Positions 9,886 through 53,769 of a stretch of DNA of 64,000 nucleotides are shown piece after piece. The DNA lies in assembly GCA_023144035.1 (NCBI GenBank), contig JAGLGM010000001.1:1091-65090 (forward strand). The letters run 5' to 3'. A program made the translations under genes and the position numbers. This DNA comes from Candidatus Pacearchaeota archaeon (GTDB lineage Archaea > Nanobdellota > Nanobdellia > Pacearchaeales > GW2011-AR1). The notes under the pieces are model-generated. The model did not search any database and was not told where the DNA came from. It saw only the letters and a list, made by a program, of their open reading frames with translations. Each line of letters opens with the position of its first letter. Position 1 is the stretch's first letter.

Positions 9886-11109
9886 TTTAATCTTAACTTC
9901 TTTATTCATTTTGAATCCTTCTTCAAGAACTTTTTTTAACAACTCTTTTACTTGATCTAAATCTTCTTTTTGTCTTTCCATTCTCTGTCCAACAAGTTTT
10001 TCTCTTTGTTTACTTTCTTCTAATTCATCTTTAACATCTTCAAGATTGTTATTATAATGAACTTTTTTAGCCCTTTTACGATTAATTGCAAGATAATTTA
10101 TATAAGATTCTAACCATTTGCTTTGAGGGGAATGTCCAAGTCTAAGATTTATGTCTTCAACATGCCATCCTTGAGAAAATAAATAACAGGCCATACCAGA
10201 TCTCAAATCTTTCCAAGAAGGTTTCTCTCCTTCGGGTTCACATTTAACTCCTGCTCTTTTAACAACACTATCAAATATTTGCAAAGCTTGTCTGTATTTA
10301 AAACTAAAAATAAAATCATCTTCTTTAAAGGGTACTGCTTTTCTTCTAATCATTCCTTTTTCATCCCTATATTCTGTTTCTTTTCCATATTTAAAAAGTG
10401 CATCTAAAAATCTTAATGTTTCAGGATAAATAGTTGGTTCGCTTCTTGTTTGTCTACTTCTTTTTAGATTTTCTTTAGGAAGATAAACTAAATATTCTTC
10501 TTGTTTTGTATCTCTATTTAATTGTCTCTTAAAATGTTTAACTCTCAATTCTAAAAGAGCAGTAATATTTTCACCAAGATCCCAAGCTAACCAAAATAAA
10601 GCATAATGTTGTGGCTTATGAAGAAAGTTTAACATTCTTTTGAATCCTTCTTCATTAATAAACCGAACTTGTTTTTTTCTTTTATCTGTGAAAAACTCTA
10701 AAGCATTTTCTACAACATCACTTAATCCTGCAAGTTTAAATGGTTTGGACTTGAAGACTTTATTATAATAACCTCTTCTATCTTCAAATCTCCTTCCAGA
10801 ACGATTTTTAATTTTACCATCTTCTAAATCATTATAGACTTGTTTAATTTCTTTTTCAGTTAATTTATTCCAGGCTTTATTTTTAAACCAATTATTCACA
10901 TTTCTAAATTTATTGATATAACCATAAAGAGTTTTATATGAAGACTCATCAATCTTAGGGAGACCATTTTGCCTTTTTAGTTTCTCTTCTTCCCATGCAA
11001 AAAATTTGTTAAACAAATCACGATTATATTTTATAATAGAATTATCTTCTAAAAGAGCTTTTTTTGTTTTCTTATATCTATCTTCAAAACTCATAAAATC
11101 ACTACACAA
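9877..11109 (-). CDS. tyrosine recombinase / phage-type integrase
   Basis: C-terminal boxes DLRSGMACYLFSQG and RLGHSPQSKWLESYINYL (LGH...Y) ; gene abuts 3' end of tRNA-Asp. Confidence 0.8.
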   Translation of the reverse strand: MCSDFMSFEDRYKKTKKALLEDNSIIKYNRDLFNKFFAWEEEKLKRQNGLPKIDESSYKTLYGYINKFRNVNNWFKNKAWNKLTEKEIKQVYNDLEDGKIKNRSGRRFEDRRGYYNKVFKSKPFKLAGLSDVVENALEFFTDKRKKQVRFINEEGFKRMLNFLHKPQHYALFWLAWDLGENITALLELRVKHFKRQLNRDTKQEEYLVYLPKENLKRSRQTRSEPTIYPETLRFLDALFKYGKETEYRDEKGMIRRKAVPFKEDDFIFSFKYRQALQIFDSVVKRAGVKCEPEGEKPSWKDLRSGMACYLFSQGWHVEDINLRLGHSPQSKWLESYINYLAINRKRAKKVHYNNNLEDVKDELEESKQREKLVGQRMERQKEDLDQVKELLKKVLEEGFKMNKEVKIKLE

Positions 11110-28281: not shown

Positions 28282-28728
28282 ATGTTTAAAATAAATATTG
28301 CAGAAAAATCAGGGAAAACCTATAAATTAGAAACAGAAGCTGAAGCTTTAATTGAAAAAACAATTCATGATAAAGTGGATGGTAAAGATATTTCTGAAGA
28401 TTTAGCAGGATATGAATTTGAAATTACTGGAGCTAGTGATAAATCTGGATTTACTGTAATGAAAGATGTTGAAGGCTTTGGAAAAAAGAAAGTATTATTA
28501 GAATATGGAAAAGGTATGAGAAAAAGACCTAGAAGAGAAGGTAAAAAGAAACAAACAACTCCTACTCCAAAAGGATTAAGATTAAGAAAAACAGTTAGAG
28601 GAAAAATTATTTCTCAAGATATAATTCAAATTAATTTAAAATTATTAAAAGAAGGAAATAAAAAACTTTCAGAAATATTTCCAGATCAAAATAAGGCAAA
28701 AGAAGTTCAAAAAAAAGGAAAAAAATAA
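28282..28728 (+). CDS. rps6e: 30S ribosomal protein S6e
   Basis: MFKINIAEKSGKTYKLE...GYEFEITGASDKSGF...RKRPRREGKKK typical S6e. Confidence 0.8.
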   Translation: MFKINIAEKSGKTYKLETEAEALIEKTIHDKVDGKDISEDLAGYEFEITGASDKSGFTVMKDVEGFGKKKVLLEYGKGMRKRPRREGKKKQTTPTPKGLRLRKTVRGKIISQDIIQINLKLLKEGNKKLSEIFPDQNKAKEVQKKGKK

Positions 28729-28783: not shown

Positions 28784-28850
28784 AATTGAAAAATAAAGGG
28801 GTATTTAAATTGAAAAATAAAGGGGTATTTAAATTGAAAAACAAGGGATT
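28784..28850. repeat. 24-bp tandem repeat x2.7 (attgaaaaataaaggggtatttaa), each unit with AAGGGG + TTG start
   Basis: seen directly; generates KNKGVFKL repeats at N-terminus of ORF 28786..29601. Confidence 0.7.
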
Positions 28851-29601
28851 AATTATTTTCTTGATAATTATTATGTTAAATTTTTCTGGTTTTGTAACAT
28901 CTATGGATTCAAATGAAAAACCAATTATCACTATTAGTATACTTGATTTTGAATCTCCAGCAAAATTAGGAGATTTTATGGATTTTCAATATTCTTTAGG
29001 AGGTGTCTCAGGTATAAATGACGGGCTTAACATTAACTTTGAGATAGAAAAAAATGAAAAAATAATTTCTTCTGGCTCTGACGCAATTTATCTTAATAAT
29101 ACTCAAGAAGAAATAATAAATACAAAAGTATTTCTTCCTTCAAACTTGGAATCTGGAGTTTATAAATTAAAAATAAATGTAAATTATGAAAATTATAGTG
29201 CAGAATCATACAGAACAATTGAAATAAAAGTTACAAGAGGTATTGCATCAATATCATCTAATAATGAAAATTTAAAAATTTATATTATTATTTTTTTATT
29301 AATCCTTCTAGTATTTTTAACCCTGACTTTTATATATAAATTTGAAAAAAGAAAAATAAATAAGGTTTTTATTAAAGAAAAAAAATTTATTAAAAAACAC
29401 AGATTATCTGTTTTAACATTAGGTTTATTCTTAATTTTAGGAATAATAATATATTATTTAAAATTAATTAATGCTTTACTCGGAGTCCCAATCGCTGTTT
29501 ATTATTCATTTTTAGGGATTTTTTTATTAATCTTCTTAATTAATATTGGTTGTAAAAACAAATATATTAAAAAATTGATTTTTAGAAGAAAAAAAAGATA
29601 A
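28786..29601 (+). CDS. membrane protein, mini-paralog of giant-protein C-terminal module (TTG start; true start may be TTG at ~28834)
   Basis: ILDFESPAKLGDFMDFQYSLGGV...YRTIEIKV aligns with ITNFESPVKLGEFFEFTYLLKGM...HRTIEIEV of 29911..42819; then TM, KFEKRKINKVFIKEKKFIKKH, two TM and RRKKR end. Confidence 0.55.
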   Translation: MKNKGVFKLKNKGVFKLKNKGLIIFLIIIMLNFSGFVTSMDSNEKPIITISILDFESPAKLGDFMDFQYSLGGVSGINDGLNINFEIEKNEKIISSGSDAIYLNNTQEEIINTKVFLPSNLESGVYKLKINVNYENYSAESYRTIEIKVTRGIASISSNNENLKIYIIIFLLILLVFLTLTFIYKFEKRKINKVFIKEKKFIKKHRLSVLTLGLFLILGIIIYYLKLINALLGVPIAVYYSFLGIFLLIFLINIGCKNKYIKKLIFRRKKR

Positions 29602-29726: not shown

Positions 29727-29760
29727 TTTATAATCCCTAGTTACTTAGTTACTTAGTAAC
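29727..29760 (+). promoter_or_regulatory. TATA-like TTTATAAT plus 3x TAGTTACT/TAGTAACC repeats forming inverted repeat GTTACT-t-AGTAAC, ending 2 nt before ATG
   Basis: TATA at 29727..29734 about 29 bp upstream of ATG 29763 (leaderless geometry); IR at 29748..29760. Confidence 0.5.
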
Positions 29761-29762
29761 CT

Positions 29763-29909
29763 ATGAAATCCAAAACAATTAAGATAAAAGAGGAAAATTA
29801 TAAATGGCTTCTTAAGATAGCTTCAGATATTCAAAAAAAAGTCGGGAGACCTGTTTCATTTGATGAGGCACTGACAAAAATAAAAAAGGAAAATAAGGAA
29901 AAAAAATAA
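29763..29909 (+). CDS. 48-aa RHH/VapB-like (PF02697-type) DNA-binding protein directly upstream of giant gene
   Basis: MKSKTIKIKEENYKWLLKIASDIQKKVGRPVSFDEALTKI; same pattern as 11600..11836 and 47302..47511 proteins; stop 2 nt before giant-gene ATG. Confidence 0.5.
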   Translation: MKSKTIKIKEENYKWLLKIASDIQKKVGRPVSFDEALTKIKKENKEKK

Positions 29910-29910
29910 A

Positions 29911-32900
29911 ATGAGCTATAAAGGGGTTATAAAATTTAGGAGAGTGAAAATCAAAAAAGATCCTCTTCCAAAAGAAAAAATCATATTCTCTATTTTTTTA
30001 GGACTTTTTTTCTTTATTCTTATGGTATCTTTTTTTAATAATGCAAATCTTTGGAATACAGGAAGTGTAATTTCTGAAAATACAGGAGAATCAAAAAATA
30101 CAGCTATTATAAATTTTGTAATTGAATTAACAGATGCTAAGCATTTAGATTTTAATAAAAATTTTATATCAAATATTTATGAAGAAGTGAGAGAATTAGA
30201 CAATATTTGGAGCAAACAAATTTCTTCTGAAGAATATATTAGAGTAACTTTTGAAGAAAACTTAACTTCAAAAAAAGATATTACAATTTATCCAAGAATA
30301 ATTTCAGGAGATCCAAGAATTGAAGTTTATGAAACAAATGAAACACAATTAATTGCTGAATTTACAAATCTTATTTCAAACGAATATAACAAGGTTTTCT
30401 TGACAAAACTTATAGGAAAGCAAGATACATTTGATTTATTGATTTTAGGAGGAAGTTTAATCATTGATCACATTATTGATCCTGAAGAAATATTAACTCC
30501 TCTTTTACATGCAAACAGCCAATTAAATTCAGTGGCTCTAGATTCTGCCCAAATAACTGCAATTACATCTGATGATGCAAGTGATATTACAATTGGCAAA
30601 GCAATAATCTTAACAGTAGAAATGAGTGAATTGTCAGGAACAATAGATACTCTAACTGACGCAAACTGTAGCTTAGTTTATTCAACAGCAACAAGCTATC
30701 CTGCTGACTCTATAACTTTTGAAGTTTATGATAGTTTTGGAGGAAACCAAGTAGCTATTTCAACTCTTCCAGCTTCTGATGGAGTTGATTCATTAGTTCA
30801 TCTTTTAGATTTAGAAACAACAGGTTTGGCAGCCTCAGAAGTTACTACAATGGTAGTTTATGTAACAAATACTATTGCAGCAAAAGGTTATAATCTTTTA
30901 GTAGATCAAATATATTGTACTATTGATTACACAGAAGCAGTACCAAACACTCCTCCAACACTTTCAGGACTTCCAGAGGTCAATGATGATGAGGATTTTG
31001 GAACAAATAATTCAGTAATGGATTTATGGGATTATGCTTCTGATGCTGAAGATGCTGATAGTGTATTAACATATGGGATTAATAGTGAAAGCGAAACCTC
31101 AATTGTAGATTGTGATATCTATGATTCTCATTATATTACCTGTACTTCTCAAGCAAATGCTTCAGGTTACAGTGATGTGAATGTTTCTGTAACAGATACA
31201 GGAGGATTAAAAGATAGTGATGTATTTAGATTTACAGTTAATACTATCAATGATGATCCTTGGTCAGATTCAATTGCAAATCCTGCATCAATAAATGAAG
31301 ATTCAGGACTTAATGACAATATTGTAAGTATAACTACAATAAACACTGCATTTAGAGATGTTGAAGAGGACCAATCTCCAACAAGTTGTACTATTGCTTC
31401 TGAAACAGACACGACTGCAGTTGATTGTGAAGTAGATGGAAGCTATAATGTAGATTGTACTACTCAGGCAAATCAGTCAGGAAGCAATATAGTAACATTA
31501 AACTGTTGTGATTCTGGAAGTTCATGCACTGATATGGATACTTTTACAGTAACAGTAGATGCTGTAAATGACAATCCTTGGAATGATGGGTTGTCTAATC
31601 CAGGCAATGTTAATGAAGATTCAGGACTTGCTGATAATATAATTACAAAAGCAACACTAGACAACACATTCAGAGATGTTGAAGAGGACCAATCTCCAAC
31701 AAGTTATGCTATTCAAAGCCAGACAGGAAGTTCAATAATAAATTGTGCATTAGATGGAAGCAATAATATAGACTGCACTACTCAAGCAAATCAGTCAGGA
31801 AGTAATATAGTAACAGTAAGATTATCTGACAGCGGAACATTATATACAGAAATGACATTCACAATCACAGTAGATTCTATAAATGACCAACCATGGGTTG
31901 ACGGCTTATCAGACCCAACAAATTTAAGTTATAATTCTGGATTAAATCAAGATGTTATTTCCTCAACAGAAATTGATGATAATTTTAGAGATGTAGAAAA
32001 TGACCAAAACCCATCAAGCGTGGTTATATTATCTCAAACCCATACTGAAATAGTTAATTGTGAATTAGATGGACATGCTTTAGATTGTACAACTCAAACA
32101 AACCAGCATGGAATCTCTACTGTTACACTAAATTACACCGACGCTGAAGGATTAAGCATAACAGATTCCATGGATATAAGCATAACACCAGACACAACAA
32201 CACCAACAATCCAAGTTCAATCTCCGACAAATAATTCTTATACAGTATCTACAATTTATTTCAATGCTACTGCGAGTGAAACTATAGATACATGGATTGT
32301 AAATTATAATGGAACAAATATAACCCACACTATCAATACTTCACTAGAAGTTGAAGATGGAAACCATAACCTATTGTTGTATGCTAATGATTCTGCTAAT
32401 AATTTTGGATTAAATGATACAATTTACTTTACTGTAGATACTCAAGAACCAAGTTTAAGCAATGAATTTTCTAATGAAACAGAAATATCACAAAATGAAT
32501 TGTTCTGCCTAAATATAACTGTAACAGATTCTCTAAATTCAATTGATACTGTCTATGCAGAAGTTTGGGATACTAGTTCTTGGGCAAATTATTCAATGTC
32601 CGAAGATGGAACATCTTGTAGTGGAACTTCTATTGATGGAATTTATGGTGTAGAAATAATTGGAAGCAATGTAGGATTATGGAATTATAGTAAGGTTTAT
32701 GCAAATGATAGCTTAAATAATTTAAACAGTTATGATTTTTCAGATTTAACAATAAATGTAACTGCTCCTGCAGATTCTACTTATCCTCAATTTGCAAATT
32801 TCCAAACATATCCTTCAAATAATTCAGAATATTCTCTAAATTATAATTATCAATTTAATTCAACAATAACTTTTACTAATTCAACAGTTTATCTAAGTTT

Positions 32901-35900
32901 TAATGGGGAAAATTATAGTGCAACAAATGATACAGTAGATAATTTTTATGTTAATACTGGATCTATATCAGCAGGAACTTATGATTATTTTTGGTGGAGT
33001 TATGGAAATGGTTCTTTAAAAAATTATAATCAAAGTAACACAAAAGATTATACTATTGCAACAAATAATTCTGATTGTCAAGTATTATTTAATGAAACAT
33101 CTTCACTTGAATATGGAAATAGTTTTAGAGTATACACAGATTGTGACTCAACTTTTACACTTTATAAAAATGGAACAACAATAGATAATAATTCAGAACA
33201 AAATTTAGGAGCAGATGCTTATAATTTCACAGTTCAAAGAGCAGATGCTACAAACTATACAAATTATTATGATGAAGCACAGTTTATAATAAGTCAAGCT
33301 ACTCCTGTTATGACATATTATCTAAATAGTGTACAAAATAATATTTCACTTAATTATCCAGGAACAATTAATGCATCAGCGTATACAACAGTTGGAACAA
33401 TAAACATTTACAGAAATGGAACAAGTGTAACAAGTGAAAATAATTTAGATATTAATCTTGTTGCAGGATATTATGAATATTTATTTAATGTTACAGGTAA
33501 TGCAAATTACTCAGATGTTTCAAATGAATATTTATACTTTGAACTTAACCAAAGCACATCTGATTGTCAAGTATTATTTAATGAAACATCTTCACTTGAA
33601 TATGGAAATAGTTTTAGAGTATACACAGATTGTGACTCAACTTTTACACTTTATAAAAATGGAACAACAATAGAGAATAATTCAGAACAAAATTTAGGAG
33701 CAGATGCTTATAATTTCACAGTTCAAAGAGCAGATGCTACAAACTATACAAATTATTATGATGAAGTACAATTTATAATAAATCAAGCAATTGGAGAAGT
33801 AGCTACATATATTGATAACTTAAGAAATAATAATTCTGTGCTTTTAAATACTGAAAGATGGCTTAATGCAACTATTATAAATCCTAATTCTGGTAATATA
33901 AAATTATATTATGATGATAATCTAATAAATCAAGGAAATTCCCCTTTATCTAATCTAACTAATTTTACTAGCGAAGGAGTATTTAATATAAGTGCTATTT
34001 ATGATGGAAATGAAAATTATACTTCAGATATTGAAACTTGGTGGGTTACAGTAAGTTCAGATTCTGCACCTACAATAAATATAATTTATCCAGAAAATAC
34101 ATTTTACAACACAGACATAATTGTTTTAAATTATACAGTTGTGGACGATATAGACTTAAGCCATTGTTGGTATAGTTTGAATAATGGAACTACTAATTCT
34201 TCTTTTGATTCTAATTGTGCTAATGTAACAGGATTAACTGCAAATCAAGGAAGCAATACTTGGTTTGTATATGCAAATGATTCAATAGGACAAGAAAGTT
34301 TAGACTTTGTAACCTTTACAAAAGACACTATTTATCCAAACTTTACAAGTTATGAAAAAAACCCAGCAACACCAAATGAAGACCAAGATATTCAAGTTAA
34401 TGTTACAATAACAGAATCAAATATAGATAAAGTTATTTTAGAATGGGACTCTACAAACTATACTATCACAACTTCAAATAATAATGAATATTATTTTACA
34501 ATTAACAACGGAAACTATACAGCACATGATTCTGTAACATATTATTGGTATGCAAATGACACTGCAGGAAATATAAATAAATCAACACAACAATCTTTTA
34601 CAGTTGCAAATCAAATACCCTCGGTCTCAGCGCCAGAAGTAAATAACACAACTCCTTATACTAATGATTTAATTTCATGTAACTCAGGAACTTTCTCTGA
34701 TGATGATGCAGAAGATACTGAACAAGCAAGATATTTTAAGTGGTATGACACAGATGTTGAAATTTCAGGGCAAACTTCTCAAACTTTAGATTTAACAACA
34801 GCTGGATTGGACAAAGGAGATGTAATCTTATGTTCAATAAGAGTTTATGACGGGTATGATAATTCTTCATATCAAAACTCAAGTAATTCGGCAACAATAC
34901 AAAATTCTAATCCAATTATTTCAAATTTACAAACAACTGTAAGTTGGAATGCTAATGGTTCAACTTATACATATGATTATGAAGTCACAGATTTAGATTC
35001 TGATTCTTTTATATGGTATGATAACACAACTTTATTTAATATAAATTCTGGAACAGGTGTAATTTCAGATATACCTACAGAAAATGAAGCAGGAACTTAT
35101 TTAATTGAAATAAATGTTTCAGATGGAACAGTTAATACAACAGATATTTTTAGTTATACAATAAATGATGTGGGTTCTCCAAACATAGATTTCCAACCGC
35201 CAACAGAAACAAACGAATCCCAATTAACAAGAGATTACATACAAGTAAATATAACTGCTTCTGACAGCATTGGAATAGATACAATAACAATTTATTTATA
35301 CAATCAAACATCTCTTGTAAATGAGACAACAAATCCAACTTCACCTTACTTTGTTAACTTTACAAATTTACCAGATGAATTTTATTATTTCAACGCCACT
35401 GTTAATGATACTTCTGGAAATACAAATCAAACAGAAACAATAACTGTTTCAACAGATACAGGAGCTCCAACAATAAATTCTGTGGCTCCTACAGAAACTT
35501 CAGGAATTCACAAGAACCAAAACTATGTTGAAGTAAATGTTACTGCTTCTGACCCTAATCTTGATAAAATTATTATAAGATTATATAATTCAGCACATAC
35601 ACAAATAGACTCAACTACAACATCATCTTCTCCGAATTTTGCAAATTTCACAGGATTAAATAATGGATTATATTATTATAATGTCACAGCTAATGATACT
35701 TTTGGAAATACTGATTCATTAGAAACAAAGAATATTACTTTAGATACAACAAAGCCATCTGTGTTATATAACCCAAGTACAGATGCAGATAATTCTTTTG
35801 TAAACAGAAACTGGATTTTAATAAACATATCAGCAAATGATACTAATTTAGATTCTGCGAGAATGGAATTTGATTCAACAAATGAAACTTTTGCTAACAA

Positions 35901-38900
35901 TGACGAAAATAATTACTGGGAAAACAAAACTTCACTTTCTAATGGAGATTATAGTTTTTATAGTTGGGCAAATGATAGTGCTGAAAATTACAATTTTACA
36001 ACAACAAGAACTGTAACAGTTGATACAATAAATCCTCTAATTGATTTTGCTATAGAAACTTCCATAAATAACTCAAATTTATCACAAAATTATATTTTTG
36101 TAAATGCAACTCTCACAGAAACAAATTTCCAAAATATTACTTATAAATTATATAATTCAACCTCATTAGTAAATGAAACAATTTACACAACCCAAACATT
36201 AAACATCAACTGGACATTACTACCAAATGAAATTTATACATATAATATAACAACTTCTGATAAAGCTTCAAATTTAAATTCAACTGCGACAAGAACAATA
36301 ACATTAGATACTGTACTTCCTCAACTAAATATAATTTATCCTCAAAGTAACACTTATACTGTAGATATCACTCAGTTAAATTATACTTATACAGAAACAA
36401 TTCCAGACAAATGCTGGTGGTCAAATAATTCTGGAATATGGAATTCCTCACTGCAAACCTGCGGAACAAATTGGACAGGATTAACATCAAATGAAGGAAG
36501 CAATACATGGACAATTTATATGAATGACTCAGCAGGAAATGAAAATTCAACAAGTGTTATCTTTACAAAAGACACTGCTTATCCTGCTGTAACAATAAAC
36601 TCTCCCCTTAATCAAACTTATGATACAACCACTATATTATTTAATGTAACAGCAACAGATGGGGGAGGAATAAGTGCTTGTGAGTATAGTTTAAGTGATG
36701 GTTTAGACAATAATTCAATGAGTCAATCAGGAAATTTCTGGACAGCCACAAACTCGTCTATGATTCAGGGTTCTCATACTGTTAATTTTTATTGTAATGA
36801 TAGTTCTGGAAATTTAAATGACACAAAACAAGAGACTTTCTTTATAGATTCAATTTATCCATTAATATCTTTTACAACAGGAACAGAAAATAATGATACT
36901 AGTCTTGTTAGAAATTGGATTTTTGCAAATGTAACAGTAACAGAAAATAACTTTGAAAATATAACTTATATACTTTACAATTCTACTGAAGAAGTTAATA
37001 CAACAACTTATACTACAGAAATAAAAGAAATAAACTGGACTGGCTTATCAGATGAGGTCTATACTTATAATGTAACAATCTGTGATCTTGTAAATAAATG
37101 TAACACAACTGAAACAAGAACAATAAGATTAGATACTTCAAATCCAGAAATTTACTATAATCCAAACACAGATTCAAATAATTCTTTTGTAAATAAAAAC
37201 TGGGTTTTCATAAATATAACAGCTTCTGATTTAACTAAAGATTCAGTTAGATTAGAATGGGGTGGAACAAATGAAACTTTTAGTAATTCAGATGGAGATT
37301 TATACTGGGAAAATAAAACAGGATTATCAGAAACAGTATACAATTTCTATGCATGGATAAATGATTCTTCAGGAAATTTAAATTCAACTGCGACAAGAAC
37401 AGTTACAATTGATCTCACAAAACCTTCAATAACAAATCTTGTGGAATCTCCTACTGACCCTACAAGCTGGACATCATCATCAACTTATCAATTTAATGCA
37501 ACAATCACAGACACAAACTTAGATACTGTTTTAATTGAATTTGACAATGTAAATTATACTCCAACAAAAACAGGAGATGTTTATAATTTAACATTAAATA
37601 ATCTAGTTGCTGGAAACTACAATTATTATTGGTATGCTAATGATTCTGCAGGAAATGTTAATCAAACTTCAGATAGTTACACTATAAATAAAAATACAGA
37701 AAATTGCCAAATTCTTTTCAATGAATCTTCTCCTCAAACTTATCCTGCAACTTTTTTAGTTTATACAGATTGTAATTCTGATTTTACTTTAACAAAAAAT
37801 GGAACCACAATCTCAAATAATACTGAACAAATCCTATCTGCAAGTGCTTATAATTTTAGTGTTCAAAGAACTGACACAGTAAATTACTCAAATACAATTG
37901 ATGAATCACAATTTATTGTAAATCAAGCAACAGGAAATATCACTTTATTAATTAATGATTCTGCATTAAATCAATCAGGACCTTATGGCACACAAACAAA
38001 TGTAAGTGCAACAACTTCTTACGGAAGTGTTACTTTATATAGAAATGAAACAGAAATTACAAGCGAGAATAATGTTTATGTAACCCTTGCAGCAAATTAT
38101 TATAATTATACAGCATATTCTTCAGGAGACCAAAATCACAGTTCTGCCTCAATAACAAAATTTGTTACAATCACAAAAACAAACAGTGAAATAAATTTAA
38201 CATTAAATGAAACAAGAGGAAATATTACAATAGTTCAAGATTCTGAAATTTATCTTAATACAACAACAATTTCAGGAGATTCTAGCGCTACATTAAAAAT
38301 GTATGACTCTGGCACACTAATTAATCAAGGAAATTCCCCAATTATTAATTTAACCACTTTTAGTTCGGTTGGAGAATTTAATATTACTGGGATTTATGTT
38401 GAAAGTGAAAATTTCACAGGATATTCTGAAACATGGTGGGTAAATGTAACAGAAACCCCTGACACAGAAAATCCAAGTGTTGCTTCCCTAACTAAAACCC
38501 CTTCTAGTCCTACAACTTATTCCCTAAGTCAAATTTATGAATTTAATGCTACTATAACTGATAATAGAAATATCCATACAGTTTTGATTGAATTTGACGG
38601 AACAAACTATACTCCAACAAACCTCGTAGGAAATATTTATAATTTTACCATAAATAACTTATCAGTTGGAAATTATAATTATAGATGGTATGCAAATGAT
38701 ACTTCTGGAAACATGAATAGTACTGAAAATAGTTCTTATATAATAAATCAAGCCACACCTTCTTTAAGTTTAAATGCAAACCCAAGCTGGTCAGAAACTT
38801 ACCTAACACAAACAACTGTAACTGGCTCTGAATGTCCTGCACAATTAACAAGCGAATGTAAATTATATAGAAATGATACAGGAATTGTAGATAATCCTAA

Positions 38901-41900
38901 TATTGTAACACTTGGTGTTGGAATTTACAATTATACTTATAATACAACAGGAAATACAAATTATACTTCTTACTCAAATTCCAGCAATCTAATAATATCT
39001 CAAAATACAGGTTCGTGTAGTATTGTATTTAATGAATCTTCTAGTATAACTTATCCTTCAACATTTAAAGTTTGGACAAATTGCACTTCTGACTTTATTT
39101 TATACAGAAACCAAACAACAATAGATAATAATTCAGAACAAAATTTAGGAGCAGGAGCTTACAACTTTACAGTTATGAGAACAGATGCTACAAACTATAC
39201 AAATTATTATGATGAACAAATATTCCAAATTAACAAAGCAACAGGAGAAGTAGCTACTTATATTGATAATCAACAAAGCAATAAATCTCTTGAACAATAT
39301 ACAGAAATTTATCTCAATGCTACTTTAGAAACTGGAACAGGAAATATTAAACTTTATAACAATGAAACCTTAATTAATCAAGGCTCTTCCCCTTTAAACA
39401 ATTTAACAAACTTTACAATTATAGGACTATATAATATTACTACAATTTATGATGGAAATGAAAATTATACTTCAGATATTGAAACTTGGTGGGTTAATGT
39501 TACAGAAGCAGATGTAACTCCACCACAAATATCAATAATTTATCCACAAAATATTTCTTATTCTGAAATTCAAACGCAATTAAATTACACAGCATCAGAT
39601 AATTTTGGATTAAATTTATGTTGGTATTCGGTAGATAATGGACAAACAAATACAACAAAAAATTGTAATGAAAATATTACTGGCTTAAATTCTGGACAAG
39701 GAAGTTCAACATGGAATGTTTATGCAAATGATTCAAAAAATAATTTAAATTTCTCATCAGTCACATTTTTTGTTGACAGTATTCTTCCTACAATTCAATT
39801 TGAATCTCCAACAGAAACTTCTGGAAATTCTCTGGGAAAAAATTATCTACAAGTTAATGTAACTGCAAGCGATGATAATCTTAACACTATAACATTTTAC
39901 CTTTACAATTCAACATCTTTGGTAAATGAAACATCCTATCTTAGTTTTCCTTATTTTATTAATTACACAGGACTTTCAGCAGAAACTTATTACTTTAATG
40001 CAACAGCAAATGATACTCTTGGAAATAATATCTCAACAGAAACACGAAATATTTCTTTAGTTTTACCAGAATTAACAATCTATAAACCAAATAATGAAAC
40101 TTATATATCTAGTAAAGATATTCCATTAAGATACTCTGCTGAATATGAAGATTATGTATGGTATAATATTAACCAAACAGAAAATATAACAATAACAGGT
40201 AATACAACATTTAACACAACTCAAGGACAACATACACTTTATTTATATGCTAACAATACACTTGGCGAAACAGTAAAAAATGTGAGCTTCAGTGTTGATA
40301 TAGCTAAATTTGTAGTCTTTTATAATGAATTTAAAGATGAAGGAAGCTCAACAGATTTTAATCAATCTTCTTATGAAGATATACAAAATTTAAGTGATAT
40401 AGTTCTTGAAAATGCAGATTATGGAAAAATAGAATTTAATGAAATAATAAATTTAACAGATGATACAAATATAAGTGATAATGAAGCTGATCTTGATACT
40501 TATATAAATATTTCTTCTAATTTGATTGAAATAGATTCAACAGTATTACCTAATTTTAATAAATCTGCTACTCTTTATTTATACAATCTAACATTTATAA
40601 CTCCAAGAATTTTGAAAGATGGAGTAATATGCCCTTCAACAATTTGCACTCAGCAAAGCTATTCTGGAGGAACATTAATATTCAATGTTACAGGATTTAC
40701 AACTTATTCTGCAGAAGAAATTCCTGGAACTCCTACTACTCCTATTACTCCTACTTCTACTTCAACAGGAGGTGGCTGGAGTATTGAATGTATTAAAGAT
40801 TCTGATTGTGAAGAAGAAGACCAAGTTTGTCTAAATAGTAAATGTGTAAAACTTTTCGACATAAAAATAACTAATTTTGAATCTCCTGTAAAATTAGGTG
40901 AATTTTTTGAATTTACTTATTTATTAAAAGGGATGGCAAATATAAGTGGAGATGTTCAAGTTTTATTCTGGATTGAAAAAGAAGGGGAAAGTGTAACTTC
41001 TGGTTCAGATGTAATTTACGTAGGAAATTTTGAAGAAAAAATAGAAACTACAAAAATATTTTTACCAAGCACAGTAGCTTCAGGAACATATCAATTTTTT
41101 GTTAAACTAAACTATGAAGGTTATACAGTTCAATCACACAGAACAATAGAAATAGAAGTTGAAGGAGAAATAGCAAAAATAACCTCGATTGAAGAAATTA
41201 ATTTCCTTAAAAAATATGTAATTTCTTTTTTAATTGGTTTAGCAATACTTATCTTAGGACTCATATTTTACATAGAAAGAAAGAAAATAAAAGAAAAATT
41301 CCTACAAGAAGAAAAATGTATTAAAAAACATAAAACTTCAATCTTAGTATTTTGTTTGTTCCTTGTAATAGGTATTTTAGCTTATTATTTAAAATTATTT
41401 GATTTAGCTGCCAAAACCATTCTCAAATTAATAAAAAGCCCCTATCTTTTTTATATTTTAGGAGCAATTATTCTCTTAATTATTTTAAAGAGATTAATAA
41501 CAATTGCGAAAAAAAGAGAGTTTGTTAATAAATTTAAAAAATGGAAAAACAAAAGAAGAATAAAGAAAAGACTAAAAAAGAAATACAAATCAGAAGTTAA
41601 AAAAATTAAAAAACATCTAAAAACAGTTACAAAAATTCGTGCTGAAAGAAAACAAGAAGCAAGACGCAAACATCGAAAAGAGTATATAAAAGCATTAATT
41701 AGATTCAGAATAAGGAAAAAGAAAAAAGCTACTTCTAAAAAGAGAAAAAAGAAAATTAAAAAATCCCATAAGTTAAAAAGAGAAAAATTTAAAGCAAAAC
41801 TAAAAAAGAAGATTCAGAAATTCTTCTTCAAATTATCTAAATTAAAAATTCTCAAAAAACACAAAGAAAAAATCAAAGAAAAAAGAAAAATAAATAAACC

Positions 41901-42819
41901 TAGGAAAAAGGAAAAAGGAAAGTTCATCAAACGAATAAAAAAACCAATCAAATATTTGAATAACAAATTTAACCAAGTAGGTTTGTTTTTATTAAGAAAA
42001 GAGAAAACTCTTACTAAAGAAGAAAAATTATTATTTAAGAAAATAAAAAAACAAATAAAACAAAATCATAATCATGTTTTTAGATTATTAAAAAAGGAAT
42101 TTAAAAAAAATAATCCTAAAGAAATTCTACAAGAATTCGAAGAAAAGTTTATTAAAACAGGTAAGTTATCGAAAAAACATCTTAAAACTTTGATAGAAAT
42201 TATAAAAGCAGAAATAATTCTTAAAACAAAAAAATTACAAACAGAAATTAAAAAAGACAGTTTAAAAATTAATCACCAAATTAACAAAGTAACTAAAAAT
42301 TCAGCAGAATTGATTAATGATTTTCTTGAACAAGTTCACAAACCTAAATTAATTTCTGTTCAAAAAGAGAAAAAAAGATTAAAGAAATATAAAAAATATA
42401 TTACAAAATTATTTTTTATTAAAAAAACAAGAAAAAGAACAAAAGAAAAAAGAAGATTCTATTCTAAAAAAATTAAATTAATAAAACAATTCAGAAAAAA
42501 AGTTTTGAGAGATATTAAAAAAATTGGGAAAAATACCAATAAATTTCCTAGAAAAAGTAAAAAAAGATTAAAGAAATATAAAAAGTATCTTACAAAATTA
42601 TTTTTTATTAAAAAAGTAAGAAAAAAACAAAAGAGAAAACAAAAAAAACTAAAAAAATTCTTTGAGAAATTCGTTAAAAAAGAAAAGAAAGGACATAAAT
42701 TAATAATGAATTTTTTCAAAAAAGATTTAAATATTAAAAAAATGAAAAAGAAGAAATTAAATCTGCTTACATGGTTAAAGACATGGTTAAAAAAACAAGA
42801 AAAGAAAAAATTTGATTAA
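29911..42819 (+). CDS. giant surface protein (4302 aa): N-terminal signal anchor, cadherin-like VNDNPW repeats, many Ig/fibronectin-like repeats with dense N-x-S/T sequons, Thr/Pro linker, C-terminal TM anchor and ~440-aa poly-Lys/Arg cytoplasmic tail
   Basis: uninterrupted 12.9 kb ORF; VNDNPW/VNDQPW motifs at 31.2-32.0 kb; PGTPTTPITPTSTST linker ~40.7 kb; TM ~41.2 kb; K/R-rich 41.5-42.8 kb. Confidence 0.85.
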   Translation: MSYKGVIKFRRVKIKKDPLPKEKIIFSIFLGLFFFILMVSFFNNANLWNTGSVISENTGESKNTAIINFVIELTDAKHLDFNKNFISNIYEEVRELDNIWSKQISSEEYIRVTFEENLTSKKDITIYPRIISGDPRIEVYETNETQLIAEFTNLISNEYNKVFLTKLIGKQDTFDLLILGGSLIIDHIIDPEEILTPLLHANSQLNSVALDSAQITAITSDDASDITIGKAIILTVEMSELSGTIDTLTDANCSLVYSTATSYPADSITFEVYDSFGGNQVAISTLPASDGVDSLVHLLDLETTGLAASEVTTMVVYVTNTIAAKGYNLLVDQIYCTIDYTEAVPNTPPTLSGLPEVNDDEDFGTNNSVMDLWDYASDAEDADSVLTYGINSESETSIVDCDIYDSHYITCTSQANASGYSDVNVSVTDTGGLKDSDVFRFTVNTINDDPWSDSIANPASINEDSGLNDNIVSITTINTAFRDVEEDQSPTSCTIASETDTTAVDCEVDGSYNVDCTTQANQSGSNIVTLNCCDSGSSCTDMDTFTVTVDAVNDNPWNDGLSNPGNVNEDSGLADNIITKATLDNTFRDVEEDQSPTSYAIQSQTGSSIINCALDGSNNIDCTTQANQSGSNIVTVRLSDSGTLYTEMTFTITVDSINDQPWVDGLSDPTNLSYNSGLNQDVISSTEIDDNFRDVENDQNPSSVVILSQTHTEIVNCELDGHALDCTTQTNQHGISTVTLNYTDAEGLSITDSMDISITPDTTTPTIQVQSPTNNSYTVSTIYFNATASETIDTWIVNYNGTNITHTINTSLEVEDGNHNLLLYANDSANNFGLNDTIYFTVDTQEPSLSNEFSNETEISQNELFCLNITVTDSLNSIDTVYAEVWDTSSWANYSMSEDGTSCSGTSIDGIYGVEIIGSNVGLWNYSKVYANDSLNNLNSYDFSDLTINVTAPADSTYPQFANFQTYPSNNSEYSLNYNYQFNSTITFTNSTVYLSFNGENYSATNDTVDNFYVNTGSISAGTYDYFWWSYGNGSLKNYNQSNTKDYTIATNNSDCQVLFNETSSLEYGNSFRVYTDCDSTFTLYKNGTTIDNNSEQNLGADAYNFTVQRADATNYTNYYDEAQFIISQATPVMTYYLNSVQNNISLNYPGTINASAYTTVGTINIYRNGTSVTSENNLDINLVAGYYEYLFNVTGNANYSDVSNEYLYFELNQSTSDCQVLFNETSSLEYGNSFRVYTDCDSTFTLYKNGTTIENNSEQNLGADAYNFTVQRADATNYTNYYDEVQFIINQAIGEVATYIDNLRNNNSVLLNTERWLNATIINPNSGNIKLYYDDNLINQGNSPLSNLTNFTSEGVFNISAIYDGNENYTSDIETWWVTVSSDSAPTINIIYPENTFYNTDIIVLNYTVVDDIDLSHCWYSLNNGTTNSSFDSNCANVTGLTANQGSNTWFVYANDSIGQESLDFVTFTKDTIYPNFTSYEKNPATPNEDQDIQVNVTITESNIDKVILEWDSTNYTITTSNNNEYYFTINNGNYTAHDSVTYYWYANDTAGNINKSTQQSFTVANQIPSVSAPEVNNTTPYTNDLISCNSGTFSDDDAEDTEQARYFKWYDTDVEISGQTSQTLDLTTAGLDKGDVILCSIRVYDGYDNSSYQNSSNSATIQNSNPIISNLQTTVSWNANGSTYTYDYEVTDLDSDSFIWYDNTTLFNINSGTGVISDIPTENEAGTYLIEINVSDGTVNTTDIFSYTINDVGSPNIDFQPPTETNESQLTRDYIQVNITASDSIGIDTITIYLYNQTSLVNETTNPTSPYFVNFTNLPDEFYYFNATVNDTSGNTNQTETITVSTDTGAPTINSVAPTETSGIHKNQNYVEVNVTASDPNLDKIIIRLYNSAHTQIDSTTTSSSPNFANFTGLNNGLYYYNVTANDTFGNTDSLETKNITLDTTKPSVLYNPSTDADNSFVNRNWILINISANDTNLDSARMEFDSTNETFANNDENNYWENKTSLSNGDYSFYSWANDSAENYNFTTTRTVTVDTINPLIDFAIETSINNSNLSQNYIFVNATLTETNFQNITYKLYNSTSLVNETIYTTQTLNINWTLLPNEIYTYNITTSDKASNLNSTATRTITLDTVLPQLNIIYPQSNTYTVDITQLNYTYTETIPDKCWWSNNSGIWNSSLQTCGTNWTGLTSNEGSNTWTIYMNDSAGNENSTSVIFTKDTAYPAVTINSPLNQTYDTTTILFNVTATDGGGISACEYSLSDGLDNNSMSQSGNFWTATNSSMIQGSHTVNFYCNDSSGNLNDTKQETFFIDSIYPLISFTTGTENNDTSLVRNWIFANVTVTENNFENITYILYNSTEEVNTTTYTTEIKEINWTGLSDEVYTYNVTICDLVNKCNTTETRTIRLDTSNPEIYYNPNTDSNNSFVNKNWVFINITASDLTKDSVRLEWGGTNETFSNSDGDLYWENKTGLSETVYNFYAWINDSSGNLNSTATRTVTIDLTKPSITNLVESPTDPTSWTSSSTYQFNATITDTNLDTVLIEFDNVNYTPTKTGDVYNLTLNNLVAGNYNYYWYANDSAGNVNQTSDSYTINKNTENCQILFNESSPQTYPATFLVYTDCNSDFTLTKNGTTISNNTEQILSASAYNFSVQRTDTVNYSNTIDESQFIVNQATGNITLLINDSALNQSGPYGTQTNVSATTSYGSVTLYRNETEITSENNVYVTLAANYYNYTAYSSGDQNHSSASITKFVTITKTNSEINLTLNETRGNITIVQDSEIYLNTTTISGDSSATLKMYDSGTLINQGNSPIINLTTFSSVGEFNITGIYVESENFTGYSETWWVNVTETPDTENPSVASLTKTPSSPTTYSLSQIYEFNATITDNRNIHTVLIEFDGTNYTPTNLVGNIYNFTINNLSVGNYNYRWYANDTSGNMNSTENSSYIINQATPSLSLNANPSWSETYLTQTTVTGSECPAQLTSECKLYRNDTGIVDNPNIVTLGVGIYNYTYNTTGNTNYTSYSNSSNLIISQNTGSCSIVFNESSSITYPSTFKVWTNCTSDFILYRNQTTIDNNSEQNLGAGAYNFTVMRTDATNYTNYYDEQIFQINKATGEVATYIDNQQSNKSLEQYTEIYLNATLETGTGNIKLYNNETLINQGSSPLNNLTNFTIIGLYNITTIYDGNENYTSDIETWWVNVTEADVTPPQISIIYPQNISYSEIQTQLNYTASDNFGLNLCWYSVDNGQTNTTKNCNENITGLNSGQGSSTWNVYANDSKNNLNFSSVTFFVDSILPTIQFESPTETSGNSLGKNYLQVNVTASDDNLNTITFYLYNSTSLVNETSYLSFPYFINYTGLSAETYYFNATANDTLGNNISTETRNISLVLPELTIYKPNNETYISSKDIPLRYSAEYEDYVWYNINQTENITITGNTTFNTTQGQHTLYLYANNTLGETVKNVSFSVDIAKFVVFYNEFKDEGSSTDFNQSSYEDIQNLSDIVLENADYGKIEFNEIINLTDDTNISDNEADLDTYINISSNLIEIDSTVLPNFNKSATLYLYNLTFITPRILKDGVICPSTICTQQSYSGGTLIFNVTGFTTYSAEEIPGTPTTPITPTSTSTGGGWSIECIKDSDCEEEDQVCLNSKCVKLFDIKITNFESPVKLGEFFEFTYLLKGMANISGDVQVLFWIEKEGESVTSGSDVIYVGNFEEKIETTKIFLPSTVASGTYQFFVKLNYEGYTVQSHRTIEIEVEGEIAKITSIEEINFLKKYVISFLIGLAILILGLIFYIERKKIKEKFLQEEKCIKKHKTSILVFCLFLVIGILAYYLKLFDLAAKTILKLIKSPYLFYILGAIILLIILKRLITIAKKREFVNKFKKWKNKRRIKKRLKKKYKSEVKKIKKHLKTVTKIRAERKQEARRKHRKEYIKALIRFRIRKKKKATSKKRKKKIKKSHKLKREKFKAKLKKKIQKFFFKLSKLKILKKHKEKIKEKRKINKPRKKEKGKFIKRIKKPIKYLNNKFNQVGLFLLRKEKTLTKEEKLLFKKIKKQIKQNHNHVFRLLKKEFKKNNPKEILQEFEEKFIKTGKLSKKHLKTLIEIIKAEIILKTKKLQTEIKKDSLKINHQINKVTKNSAELINDFLEQVHKPKLISVQKEKKRLKKYKKYITKLFFIKKTRKRTKEKRRFYSKKIKLIKQFRKKVLRDIKKIGKNTNKFPRKSKKRLKKYKKYLTKLFFIKKVRKKQKRKQKKLKKFFEKFVKKEKKGHKLIMNFFKKDLNIKKMKKKKLNLLTWLKTWLKKQEKKKFD
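33070..33766. repeat. recent internal duplication in giant gene (208 bp x2, ~5 mismatches, period 489 bp)
   Basis: 33070..33277 vs 33559..33766 near-identical; more divergent copies near 37.7 and 39.0 kb. Confidence 0.85.
41500..42819. repeat. low-complexity Lys/Arg-rich coding region with internal repeats (KKRLKKYKKYxTKLFFIKK x2)
   Basis: 42370..42430 vs 42565..42625 similar; AAA/AAG-dominated. Confidence 0.7.
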
Positions 42820-43292: not shown

Positions 43293-44480
43293 ATGACAAA
43301 CAAATTACCAGAACTTAATGTAGGTGTTGTTGGACATATTGACCATGGAAAAACAACTTTACTTAGCCAACTTACTGGAAAGTTTACAGACACTCATTCT
43401 GAAGAATTAAAGAGAGGAATTACAATAAAATTAGGTTATGCAGATATGACTATTTACAAAGATGGAAATAATTATAATATAAATAAAAAAGGAACTGCTC
43501 AAAGATATGTTAGTTTTATAGATGCACCAGGTCATGAAATGCTTATGGCAACTATGCTTTCTGGAGCTGCAACAATGGATGCAGCAATTTTAGTAATAGC
43601 TGCAAATGAAGGAATTAAACCTCAAACACAAGAACATTTTATGGCTTTACAAGCAAAAAAAATAAAAAATATAATAGTAGTTCAAAACAAAATTGATTTA
43701 GTAACTAAAGAACAAGCTTTAGAAAACTATAAATTAATTAAAGAATTTCTTAAAGGAAGTTTATCTGAAGATGCTCCAATAATTCCTATTTCAGCTCAAC
43801 AAGGAATAAACATTGATAAAATATTAGAAGAACTTTGCAAATTAGAGATTCCAAAAAGAGATGACACAACTGAACCAATTTTTTTAGTAGCCAGAAGTTT
43901 TGATATTAATAAGCCAGGATCTTTAATTTTAAATTTAAAGGGAGGAGTTTTAGGTGGAATTCTTAAAAAAGGTAAATTAAAAGTAGGAGATGAAATTGAA
44001 ATAAAACCTGGATTAAATATTAAAAAAGCAAATCAACAAACTTATGAAACTTTAACAACAAAAATATTATCTTTACACAAAGGAAAAGATTCTGTAAAAG
44101 AAGTTTCACCTGGAGTAAGTATTTCAATTGAAACAGAACTTGATCCTTTTTTAACAAAAACAGATTCATTAACAGGCTGTCTTGTATCTATAAAAGGAAA
44201 ACTTCCAGAAATAAGTCATAGTATAAAATTAAAAACAAATTTATTTGATAAAGTTTTAGGAACAGCAGAACATCAAGAAGTTGAACCATTAAAAACAAAA
44301 GAAATGTTAATGTTAAGTGTAAATACAACAATTACTGTTGGAACAATTGAAAAAGTGAGTGAAAAAGAATTAGAATTGTCTTTGAATATTCCAATTGTTG
44401 CATTAAAAGGAGACAATGTTGGTATTGCAAGAAACATTGATGGGCACTGGAGATTAATCGGCTTTGGAGAAATAATTTAA
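43293..44480 (+). CDS. eif2g: translation initiation factor aIF2 gamma subunit
   Basis: VGVVGHIDHGKTTL, HSEELKRGITIKLGYA, DAPGHE, NKID; three-domain EF-Tu-like 395 aa; no zinc knuckle. Confidence 0.85.
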   Translation: MTNKLPELNVGVVGHIDHGKTTLLSQLTGKFTDTHSEELKRGITIKLGYADMTIYKDGNNYNINKKGTAQRYVSFIDAPGHEMLMATMLSGAATMDAAILVIAANEGIKPQTQEHFMALQAKKIKNIIVVQNKIDLVTKEQALENYKLIKEFLKGSLSEDAPIIPISAQQGINIDKILEELCKLEIPKRDDTTEPIFLVARSFDINKPGSLILNLKGGVLGGILKKGKLKVGDEIEIKPGLNIKKANQQTYETLTTKILSLHKGKDSVKEVSPGVSISIETELDPFLTKTDSLTGCLVSIKGKLPEISHSIKLKTNLFDKVLGTAEHQEVEPLKTKEMLMLSVNTTITVGTIEKVSEKELELSLNIPIVALKGDNVGIARNIDGHWRLIGFGEII

Positions 44481-53750: not shown

Positions 53751-53769
53751 CTAGAATCAATCATTCATC
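53751..53769. repeat. 19-bp direct repeat (gyrA 3' end, ctagaatcaatcattcatc), partner at 50302..50320
   Basis: exact 19/19 match 3.45 kb apart. Confidence 0.7.

Follow-up and report, generated by a model that had tools for sequence, protein, structure and literature searches.

COG1753 (DUF217) was described by Makarova et al. as an archaea-specific family of ribbon–helix–helix (RHH) antitoxins tied to PIN toxins (PMC2701414). The antitoxin VapB14 of Sulfolobus acidocaldarius is bifunctional and has a further role as a regulator of genes for biofilm and motility (PMC10127717). Giant surface proteins of DPANN archaea are represented by the SPEARE proteins of Nanohaloarchaeum antarcticus (PMC6642349), and the giant genes of Omnitrophota encode very large proteins in ultra-small symbionts or predators (bioRxiv 10.1101/2023.11.21.568195). 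The present analysis concerns a 64,000-nt stretch of DNA from a Candidatus Pacearchaeota archaeon (GCA_023144035.1, contig JAGLGM010000001.1, positions 1,091 to 65,090; hereafter the window), in which a gene for a 48-residue VapB-like protein directly precedes a gene for a 4302-residue surface protein. It is proposed that the small protein is probably a truncated VapB autorepressor which, through an operator at its own promoter, controls the operon of a giant adhesin with a selected cationic tail. The pair and its promoter comprise the following elements.

29727..29734, forward strand: TATA box TTTATAAT, in which TTTATAA is invariant in 8 aligned upstream regions.
29738..29761, forward strand: operator-like array TAGTTACT TAGTTACT TAGTAACC, three 8-bp units, conserved and unique in the window.
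29763..29909, forward strand: small gene, encoding a solo VapB-type (COG1753/PF02697-related), putative RHH DNA-binding protein without the C-terminal toxin-binding extension.
29911..42819, forward strand: giant gene, encoding a predicted surface glycoprotein of 4302 residues in a single open frame, with syntenic orthologues in other Pacearchaeota.

A preliminary description of this DNA had reported the two open reading frames (ORFs) at 29763..29909 and 29911..42819, and both are confirmed; the small-gene stop codon and the giant ATG are, however, separated by 1 nt and not by 2 nt. The 48-residue protein shares with COG1753 antitoxins of VapBC pairs a homologous N-terminal domain (K-x-I-K-I-s-e-e-n-Y ... 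G-x-x-v-S-F-D-e-A-l), an operator of inverted or direct repeats that separates TATA box and ATG, and an apparent position as the first gene of an operon. It differs from them in its length of 48 residues, in lacking the 'LAGSWK...W..W' extension, in having a 4302-residue surface protein in place of the PIN toxin, and in being conserved at the level of a housekeeping protein. Like VapB14, it would be an archaeal VapB acting on surface or attachment behaviour beyond toxin neutralisation, if it has the regulatory role suggested here. Unlike VapB14, which retains a cognate VapC and acts in trans, it is toxin-less and would act in cis with its presumed target.

Homologues of the small protein fall into 71 clusters, with lengths of 45–71 residues and identities of 74–100%. 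Over the same genome pairs, the small protein is 72–83% identical, compared with 68–74% for aIF5B, 66–69% for ribosomal protein S6e and 38–52% for the giant N-terminal domain. An ORF of 48 residues that is so highly conserved indicates an expressed, strongly constrained protein.

The RHH/VapB-like character claimed for the small gene in the preliminary description is supported at the level of the family. A profile of the 48-residue family retrieved 88 proteins at E ≤ 1e-3 from 1.84 billion representatives. The distant ones among them are mostly 75–100 residues long and carry a C-terminal 'LAGSWK-MSDEEAE...W..W' extension; 44 of 83 such proteins match PF02697 VAPB_antitox, with E down to 2.5e-9, and 52 match PRK13696 of NCBIfam. 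Two relatives stand before PIN-like genes. At L022 (L numbers denote relative loci, and P numbers homologous proteins found with giant residues 3460–3880), an 85-residue relative (PF02697, E = 9e-5, 23.6 bits against a gathering cut-off of 27.9 bits) overlaps a 132-residue PIN-domain gene, and at L080 an 82-residue relative is followed by a PIN-like N-terminus. Furthermore, one JGI record calls a 47-residue homologue a 'predicted CopG family antitoxin'. Direct contact with PF02697 was made by 1 of 37 close homologues, at E = 0.15. Profiles A2 and A3 of the small family found no relative among PDB sequences, and an hhalign comparison of A2 with a CopG sequence gave no meaningful alignment and was discarded as a test.

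The 48-residue protein stops 1 residue past its second helix, without the extension of its 75–100-residue relatives, and the gene that adjoins it encodes the giant surface protein, not a PIN or RelE toxin. Because the family is linked to PF02697 and PRK13696 through intermediates, has PIN-adjoining relatives and agrees with the description of COG1753, the protein is best read as a truncated, toxin-less VapB that would keep only the DNA-binding domain. An AF2 model of the monomer (37-sequence alignment, mean pLDDT 82) shows an extended segment at residues 1–9, a helix at 10–27, a turn at G28-R-P-V-S32 and a second helix at 33–47. This layout fits an RHH monomer, whose paired strand would form only in the dimer; a Foldseek search of the PDB was uninformative. 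From the modelled secondary structure and the family link, the protein is assigned a putative RHH fold.

The preliminary description had also reported the TATA box, three repeat units and the palindrome GTTACT-t-AGTAAC, all of which were found at 29727–29761. The array consists of half-sites GTTAC (29740–44), GTTAC (29748–52) and GTAAC (29756–60), the last two of which form the palindrome GTTACTtAGTAAC (29748–29760). Within the 64-kb window, GTTACYTAGTWAC occurs solely at the small-gene promoter (0.15 expected; 0/100 shuffles reach 3 matches), and each of 14 related loci has exactly one copy, always 5′ of the small gene. In an alignment of 8 upstream regions from three lineages, conservation is nearly confined to TTTATAA and GGTTAC-YTA-GTTAC. 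All 11 lineages examined share one layout: a TATA box, then 6 nt, then half-sites at an exact spacing of 8 bp, direct or inverted. The distance from the TATA box to the first half-site is constant in all lineages with a 48-residue-type protein, and is 5–7 nt in vapBC relatives. The final 45 nt hold 2–3 GTTAC/GTAAC half-sites per lineage, compared with 0.03–0.11 expected (11 lineages), and in some lineages a second half-site cluster lies immediately 5′ of the ATG.

The view that the operator is a chance palindrome was considered and rejected: a 6+6 palindrome alone is, by estimate, near chance in AT-rich DNA, but chance does not explain that it is conserved and unique. In metagenomes, 109 of 120 matches to a loose operator pattern are accounted for by chance, and only the version with the YTA spacer is specific; in a blind metagenome scan, 8 of the 9 YTA-spacer sites precede a VapB-like ORF. 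The true vapB–PIN locus L022 has a perfect palindrome, AGTTACT-A-AGTAACT, at the equivalent site, and the longer vapB of L023 has GTTAC-CTA-GTAAC. The presence of the half-site at true vapB–PIN promoters indicates that it was inherited from antitoxin ancestry.

MetJ and the omega protein of the Streptococcus plasmid pSM19035 are RHH repressors whose operators are tandem arrays of 8-bp or 7-bp units. The array in the window resembles theirs in that its short, phased direct and inverted units, three at exactly 8 bp, would suit cooperative RHH dimers. It differs in that no sequence relationship to these repressors was demonstrated, and in that the promoter is archaeal, where a repressor bound 3′ of the TATA box would probably occlude TFB or RNA polymerase. 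The position of the TATA box implies a transcription start about 5–7 nt before the ATG, and thus a near-leaderless first cistron; relative to this probable start, the array would span about −17 to +4. Archaeal repressors bound at such positions block polymerase recruitment. It is proposed that the small protein binds as cooperating RHH dimers to the 8-bp-phased half-sites between the TATA box and its own start, and that the bound regulator would block recruitment of RNA polymerase. The earlier suggestion of an inverted-repeat operator and autoregulation thus gains support from the conservation of the TATA box and the half-sites in 11 lineages, in which other intergenic DNA is unconserved.

In relatives with a 48-residue-type protein whose contig extends far enough, the small gene has the conserved aIF5B–S6e neighbourhood. 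The next gene on the same strand is nearly always a large surface gene, whose product, where recorded in full, measures 2215–4851 residues. Such a giant or large surface gene follows the small gene immediately in the groups L002–L009, L012–L015, L016, L018, L020, L021, L110, L118, L121, L124 and L133. Its product measures 4851, 3520, 3127 and 2280 residues in the L002–L007 group, and 2497, 3274 and 2215 residues in L012–L015; the downstream genes are also complete in L016 (2677 residues) and L118 (2627 residues, followed by aIF2-gamma). The downstream gene of L018 encodes at least 2036 residues, and its C-terminus is found on L001 beside aIF2-gamma and gyrA. Elsewhere, contig ends limit the downstream products to at least 1780, 1076, 929, 774 and 527 residues. 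In L021 and L120, the large secreted protein downstream has a different N-terminus.

In the window, the cassette is flanked by rps6e (28282..28728) on one side and the aIF2-gamma gene (43293..44480) on the other. The cassette is a conserved, vertically inherited feature of the rps6e to aIF2-gamma interval in Pacearchaeota. The metagenome-assembled genome GCA_035530435.1, to which L001 (DATKUW010000055) and L018 (DATKUW010000067) belong, is labelled 'Bacillota bacterium', yet carries archaeal aIF2-gamma and the cassette; it is evidently a mislabelled Pacearchaeota-like genome, with its giant gene split over the two contigs.

The junctions between the small gene and the surface gene measure −11 or −4 nt (overlap), +1, +20, +40 or +48 nt. 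Runs of five or more T (T5+) are absent from 14 junction regions (2267 nt), compared with 1.8 per kb in the giant ORF and 7.1 per kb in the window. In most lineages, GAGG or GGGG lies 5–9 nt 5′ of the giant ATG. A near-leaderless first cistron followed by a second cistron led by a Shine–Dalgarno (SD) site is the usual archaeal operon layout. Because of the conserved adjacency, the overlaps, the lack of T5+ runs and the SD-like site before the second cistron, co-transcription of the two genes, as claimed in the preliminary description, is well supported by inference.

Several observations weigh against the interpretation as a whole. The 48-residue protein of the window has no Pfam or NCBIfam match at E ≤ 0.05, and the 20–48-nt gaps of some lineages could hide a separate promoter for the giant gene. 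In L019 (5861–6475) and L114 (874–1515), the gene behind the regulator encodes a 204–213-residue N-terminal domain alone, consisting of a transmembrane (TM) segment and the first ectodomain; the remainder of the giant gene appears to have been lost, and the regulator and operator retained. L050 (reverse strand, 1293–2864) encodes a 523-residue version in which the N-terminal motif and TM segment are joined to three TM helices and a 353-residue tail, an arrangement that suggests a recombination event or a chimeric assembly. As L019, L114 and L050 keep the small gene with a reduced giant, the regulator is not strictly dependent on a full giant gene. The adhesin role is, moreover, read from architecture, and the tails of relatives vary from 12 to 517 residues and are highly variable in sequence, which makes a single precise tail function doubtful. 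As further details of these reduced loci, the stub of L019 is followed directly by an unrelated 501-residue membrane protein, and the L050 protein has no ectodomain and no sequons, with FAQELEKDVSDLTKGIK present twice, after the first TM segment and in the tail.

These loci also bear on an alternative explanation, in which the small gene is a self-regulating vapBC relic without its toxin, and the giant gene merely adjoins it and has its own promoter. The antitoxin lineage of the small protein and the identical half-site of true vapB–PIN pairs are in keeping with such a relic, as are the 20–48-nt gaps and the survival of the small gene beside stubs of the giant. Decay would be expected of a relic, yet the small protein is better conserved than both aIF5B and S6e. 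Moreover, more than 10 lineages have a giant or large surface gene next to the small one, on the same strand and at a constant place in the chromosome, and the overlapping stop and start codons of several lineages, the lack of oligo-T runs and the SD-like site ahead of the giant ATG agree with an operon. The relic explanation is considered unlikely. In the preferred reading of a regulated operon, the giant gene would be its SD-led second cistron, so that the same negative feedback would govern a costly 13-kb mRNA. The outcome would be a narrow range of transcript, or pulses if the regulator is labile like antitoxins.

The N-terminal and extracellular part of the giant protein is built from the following regions.

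29911..30039, forward strand: N-terminal basic segment, predicted to be cytoplasmic (residues 1–24, IKFRRVKIKK), and TM/signal-anchor segment (residues 25–43), from hydropathy.
30088..30945, forward strand: conserved N-terminal ectodomain (residues ~60–345), which marks orthologous giants (56 matching protein clusters, 38–52% identity).
30931..32211, forward strand: four ~105-residue repeats (residues 341–767), from self-similarity; three end in [IV]ND[DNQ]PW.
32212..40290, forward strand: ~28 Ig-like repeats of ~90 residues, acidic, Lys/Arg-depleted and dense in N-x-S/T sequons.

The motif [IV]-x-F-[KR]-[KR]-V-K-x-K (window 29911–29982) is present in most orthologues (L002, L016, L018, L019, L114, L124 and L133). 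It is odd for the n-region of a signal peptide, which suggests that the N-terminus may stay cytoplasmic and be recognised by something. Three of the four ~105-residue repeats end in INDDPW, VNDNPW or INDQPW. The preliminary description had called these repeats cadherin-like; the resemblance of the motif holds for these three occurrences, but membership of the cadherin family finds no support in Pfam or the PDB. Residues 351–770 matched no Cadherin family at E ≤ 1, only He_PIG (0.88) and TIG (0.61), and neither phmmer nor a four-repeat profile of the ~105-residue repeats retrieved anything relevant from the PDB.

An iterated profile identified 27 strong and 2 marginal ~90-residue repeats over residues 724–3465, with 17 matches for one subtype. 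Big_13 and Big_7 fall just short of the Pfam thresholds, with 24.2 of the required 27 bits and 21.6 of 24.1, respectively. The giant protein contains 207 N-x-S/T sequons, nearly all between residues 800 and 3600, and the dozens of repeats with dense sequons noted earlier are borne out. Lys and Arg make up 1–5% of the ectodomain (residues 50–3700, window 30058–41010), compared with 15.6% in other ORFs of the window, a depletion that implies strong selection against basic residues on what is predicted to be the outside of the cell. Pfam searches of the whole giant protein and its sub-regions found no protease, nuclease (including restriction endonuclease), glycosyl hydrolase or laminin-G domains. 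The giant protein is most likely a glycosylated, acidic, lysine-poor fibre that would serve as an adhesin or surface-contact protein.

The bacterial giant Ig-like repeat adhesins SiiE, LapA and MpIBP use type I secretion and are held in the outer membrane. The giant protein of the window resembles them in its tandem Ig-like rod and distinct terminal modules, and its 'VNDxP' repeat ends are like those of bacterial cadherin-like/VCBS-type repeats. In contrast, its N- and C-terminal TM segments predict an integral membrane protein whose tail lies in the cytoplasm, and it bears sequons for N-glycosylation. It also resembles the SPEARE and Omnitrophota giants, which are likewise very large, repeat-rich, membrane-anchored extracellular proteins of tiny genomes with presumed roles in cell–cell contact. 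Unlike these giants, it has no detected protease, nuclease, glycosyl hydrolase or laminin-G domains, and the Pfam searches found in it none of the serine protease, adhesion and restriction-endonuclease domains that mark SPEARE-type proteins. A search of the literature on SPEARE and Omnitrophota giants found no report of a dedicated small regulator or a long cationic cytoplasmic tail.

The ectodomain leads through a stalk into a membrane anchor, a paralogue of which is encoded immediately upstream of the cassette promoter.

40291..40902, forward strand: stalk domain, Thr/Pro-rich linker and small Cys-rich knot; the stalk is common to ~570-residue Pacearchaeota surface proteins.
40903..41190, forward strand: membrane-proximal seven-stranded Ig-like beta-sandwich (FDIKIxxFESPxKLGEFFEF), with AF2 pLDDT >90 over the strands.
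41212..41505, forward strand: three TM helices (residues 3768–3865), from hydropathy and AF2 helices; the first loop is basic (ERKKIKEKFLQEEKCIKKHK).
28786..29601, forward strand: upstream anchor paralogue, with a signal/TM segment, an Ig-like beta-sandwich and three TM helices, and almost tail-less.

In place of the single TM anchor of the preliminary description, the giant protein has three C-terminal hydrophobic segments (3768–3865) and one N-terminal segment (25–43). The stalk is 60–70% identical to that of Pacearchaeota surface proteins of ~550–600 residues, which have one TM segment and short tails; the median tail is 28 residues over 111 matches having a C-terminal TM segment. For the membrane-proximal domain, Foldseek returned nothing more specific than the generic Ig-like domains found in GH2 enzymes and transglutaminases. 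The three-TM arrangement is also found in P0001, P0009, P0015, P0018, P0025 and the L016 giant, and a narrower set of relatives shares the Ig-like domain and three TM helices with a basic ERKKIK loop. Direct reading showed no PGF motif of a PGF-CTERM/archaeosortase-type anchor; three TM helices and then 435 residues stand there instead.

The tail that follows the anchor differs among relatives. In the syntenic orthologue P0001, it is ~100 residues long, and the giants of L016 and L118 have tails of 517 residues after three TM helices and 261 residues after one, respectively. Other relatives combine a short module with a long tail: P0025 (379 residues), P0015 (290 residues) and P0009 (270 residues, Arg/Glu-rich). 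P0027 has the Ig-like domain, a single TM segment and a 355-residue tail of Pro/Lys repeats (KLPKFKLKLPK..., 17% Pro). The Arg/Glu-rich stretch of the P0009 tail, which follows the Ig-like domain and three TM helices, is like a single alpha-helix (ERERELARKKEERARKRQ...). A dedicated regulator and a long tail, described earlier as unusual for a giant adhesin, are both family features across Pacearchaeota and not peculiar to this gene.

The upstream paralogue is 45% identical over 193 residues to giant residues ~3640–3830. It has syntenic counterparts in L019 (237-residue protein, 47%) and L002 (257-residue protein, 45% over 222 residues), and no Pfam family matched it. Its ORF, opened by TTG, begins with three tandem copies of KNKGVFKL (24-nt repeat, 28786–28860), and its start codon is uncertain.

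The C-terminal tail of the giant protein is composed as follows.

41512..42816, forward strand: cationic, amphipathic-helical tail, predicted to be cytoplasmic (residues 3868–4302, 435 residues).
41923..42357, forward strand: conserved tail core (residues ~4005–4149), less basic than its flanks, which aligns with L050 and P0025.
42363–42450 and 42552–42639, forward strand: internal duplication in 88-nt copies (KKRLKKYKKY[IL]TKLFFIKK), 85% identical, 189 nt apart and in frame.

The tail is 35% Lys and 7% Arg, with a net charge of +152; its combined K+R content of 42% compares with 15.6% in other ORFs of the window. The earlier picture of a ~440-residue poly-Lys/Arg tail holds for its length, at 435 residues, and its basicity, but not for its character, as the tail is 30% hydrophobic and amphipathic. 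The internal repeats also claimed were recovered as the 85% identical 88-nt copies. The helical hydrophobic moment gives z = 5.6 for the window tail and z = 4.7–5.5 for those of L016, P0025 and P0015; the tails of P0009 and P0027 show no such marked excess over shuffles. With the glycosylated repeats outside, three TM helices would leave the tail on the same, inner side as the basic first loop, in accordance with the positive-inside rule. Hydropathy and this rule thus predict a cytoplasmic tail, in agreement with the intracellular location proposed earlier.

Although the DNA of the tail is 58% A, it contains 0 in-frame stops in 435 codons, compared with ~46 expected, and the other forward frames contain 40 and 50. 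The probability of such an open frame is ~7e-22, and 0 of 20000 shuffles were open. The longest A-run is 8 nt, whereas synonymous shuffles gave a mean maximum of 12.3 and a minimum of 9 (0/2000 as low), and AAG is present in every run of at least 3 lysines. Long poly-A tracks cause slippage and ribosome sliding. Avoidance of A-runs points to selection on translation and removes homopolymer error as an explanation. The tail is genuinely coding and selected as a translated product.

The same data bear on whether the giant ORF or its tail is an artefact of a frameshift or assembly, whether by homopolymer error or by a chimeric join. The sequence is metagenome-derived, repeat-rich and AT-rich, its exact product is not on record, and the relative L050 looks rearranged. 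The order of Ig-like domain, three TM helices and long basic tail nevertheless recurs in independent assemblies (L016, P0001, P0009, P0015 and P0025), with tails of 102 to 517 residues behind homologous three-TM anchors. The N- and C-terminal modules of orthologues match, the other frames are filled with stops, and the A-runs do not exceed 8 nt. An artefact, which the preliminary description had named as the finding that would undo its account of the tail, is not borne out by the open frame and short A-runs and is extremely improbable.

Alignments of the tail core with SEG filtering and composition correction gave E = 2e-10 for L050 (31% over 157 residues) and E = 2e-9 for P0025, and the core score was above those of all 300 block shuffles. 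A hidden Markov model of the core found nothing beyond its three seeds among all fetched proteins and loci, and the L016 tail could not be aligned with that of the window. It might be argued that the tail is functionless, a tolerated low-complexity extension driven by mutation bias that grows and shrinks by duplication. Homologous tails of 12–517 residues that mostly cannot be aligned would be expected in that case, as would the internal duplication and the 58% A content, and the upstream paralogue functions without a tail. Such an extension would gain stops, yet none occurs where ~46 are expected; the avoidance of A-runs, the amphipathic periodicity in four independent tails and a core that can be aligned with two relatives also speak against it. 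A functionless tail is judged improbable.

For a tail that is selected, as preferred here, it is proposed that the Ig-like domain, three TM helices and long cationic tail would together hold the giant fibre in the membrane. The amphipathic helices of the tail may lie on the anionic inner surface of the membrane or bind nucleic acid, as a broad footing, and the conserved core may dock a protein partner. With modest confidence, the tail is viewed as a footing on the membrane surface or a docking platform for a polyanion, either lipid head groups or nucleic acid, or for a protein partner bound by the core. The anchor module, in which an Ig-like domain and three TM helices lead into a cationic, amphipathic tail and its conserved core, appears to be previously undescribed.

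A more far-reaching scheme can be drawn by analogy, in which the toxin–antitoxin circuit has been rewired and the giant would have replaced the toxin in function as well as in the operon. The tail core of the giant, or its [IV]xF[KR][KR]VK motif, would bind or sequester the regulator or its operator at the membrane, such that the amount or mechanical state of the adhesin would feed back on the operon, with the tail-less paralogue as a partner or competitor. This scheme is distinctly improbable; if true, it would be analogous to conditional cooperativity in toxin–antitoxin systems.

The window has a GC content of 24–32%, and the genome, of Pacearchaeota (DPANN), of ~26%. Among its genes are those for archaeal aIF5B, ribosomal protein S6e, aIF2-gamma, SerRS and a bacterial-type gyrase. 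The 48-residue protein is identical to KAI04_00260, labelled Candidatus Pacearchaeota archaeon, and a look-up of this protein retrieved only two Logan contigs, of 1.3–1.6 kb, from SRR13892603 and SRR13892604. The exact 4302-residue product has no record in the gene index. ORFs 6547..8307 and 9877..11109 were compared as candidate paralogues of the surface-protein family and are not paralogues.

Other genes of the window stand apart from the cassette. The GyrA gene (53761–58713, reverse strand) encodes 1650 residues because it includes domains for intein splicing and a LAGLIDADG homing endonuclease; the GyrB gene is close by (61111–62988), and the GyrA of the relative L001 is an intein-free protein of 812 residues. 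Neighbours of the cassette include a Cas4-like PD-(D/E)XK nuclease (46456–47253, forward strand) and a SIMPL/DUF541 protein (27496–28239, forward strand). The Cas4-like gene has no CRISPR context within the window, and both neighbours are, as far as seen, unrelated to the cassette.

A full-text literature search found papers on giant proteins in DPANN, in Omnitrophota and in proteomes at large, and on VapB antitoxins with further regulatory roles, but no description of the regulator/giant-gene pair, its operator or the anchor-plus-tail module. The RHH autoregulator, the solo antitoxin and the repeat adhesin are known kinds; the conserved way in which they are combined, and the tail module, seem to be novel variants. 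The locus offers an example of antitoxin domestication, in which the DNA-binding half of a VapB is now more conserved than S6e. As a landmark, the 48-residue gene and its near-diagnostic operator locate the giant surface-protein gene of this clade even in fragmented metagenomes. Furthermore, the regulatory hypothesis is testable, as the presumed target spans 24 bp and the regulator is short enough for chemical synthesis.

DPANN archaea, Pacearchaeota among them, are abundant, uncultivated and thought to live attached to other cells, but how they control attachment is little understood. The cytoplasmic partner of the anchor module, if there is one, could link the surface to the interior in cells with minimal genomes. 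The recurrence of the pair and its operator across the group suggests that this very costly, presumed attachment protein has a switch of its own.

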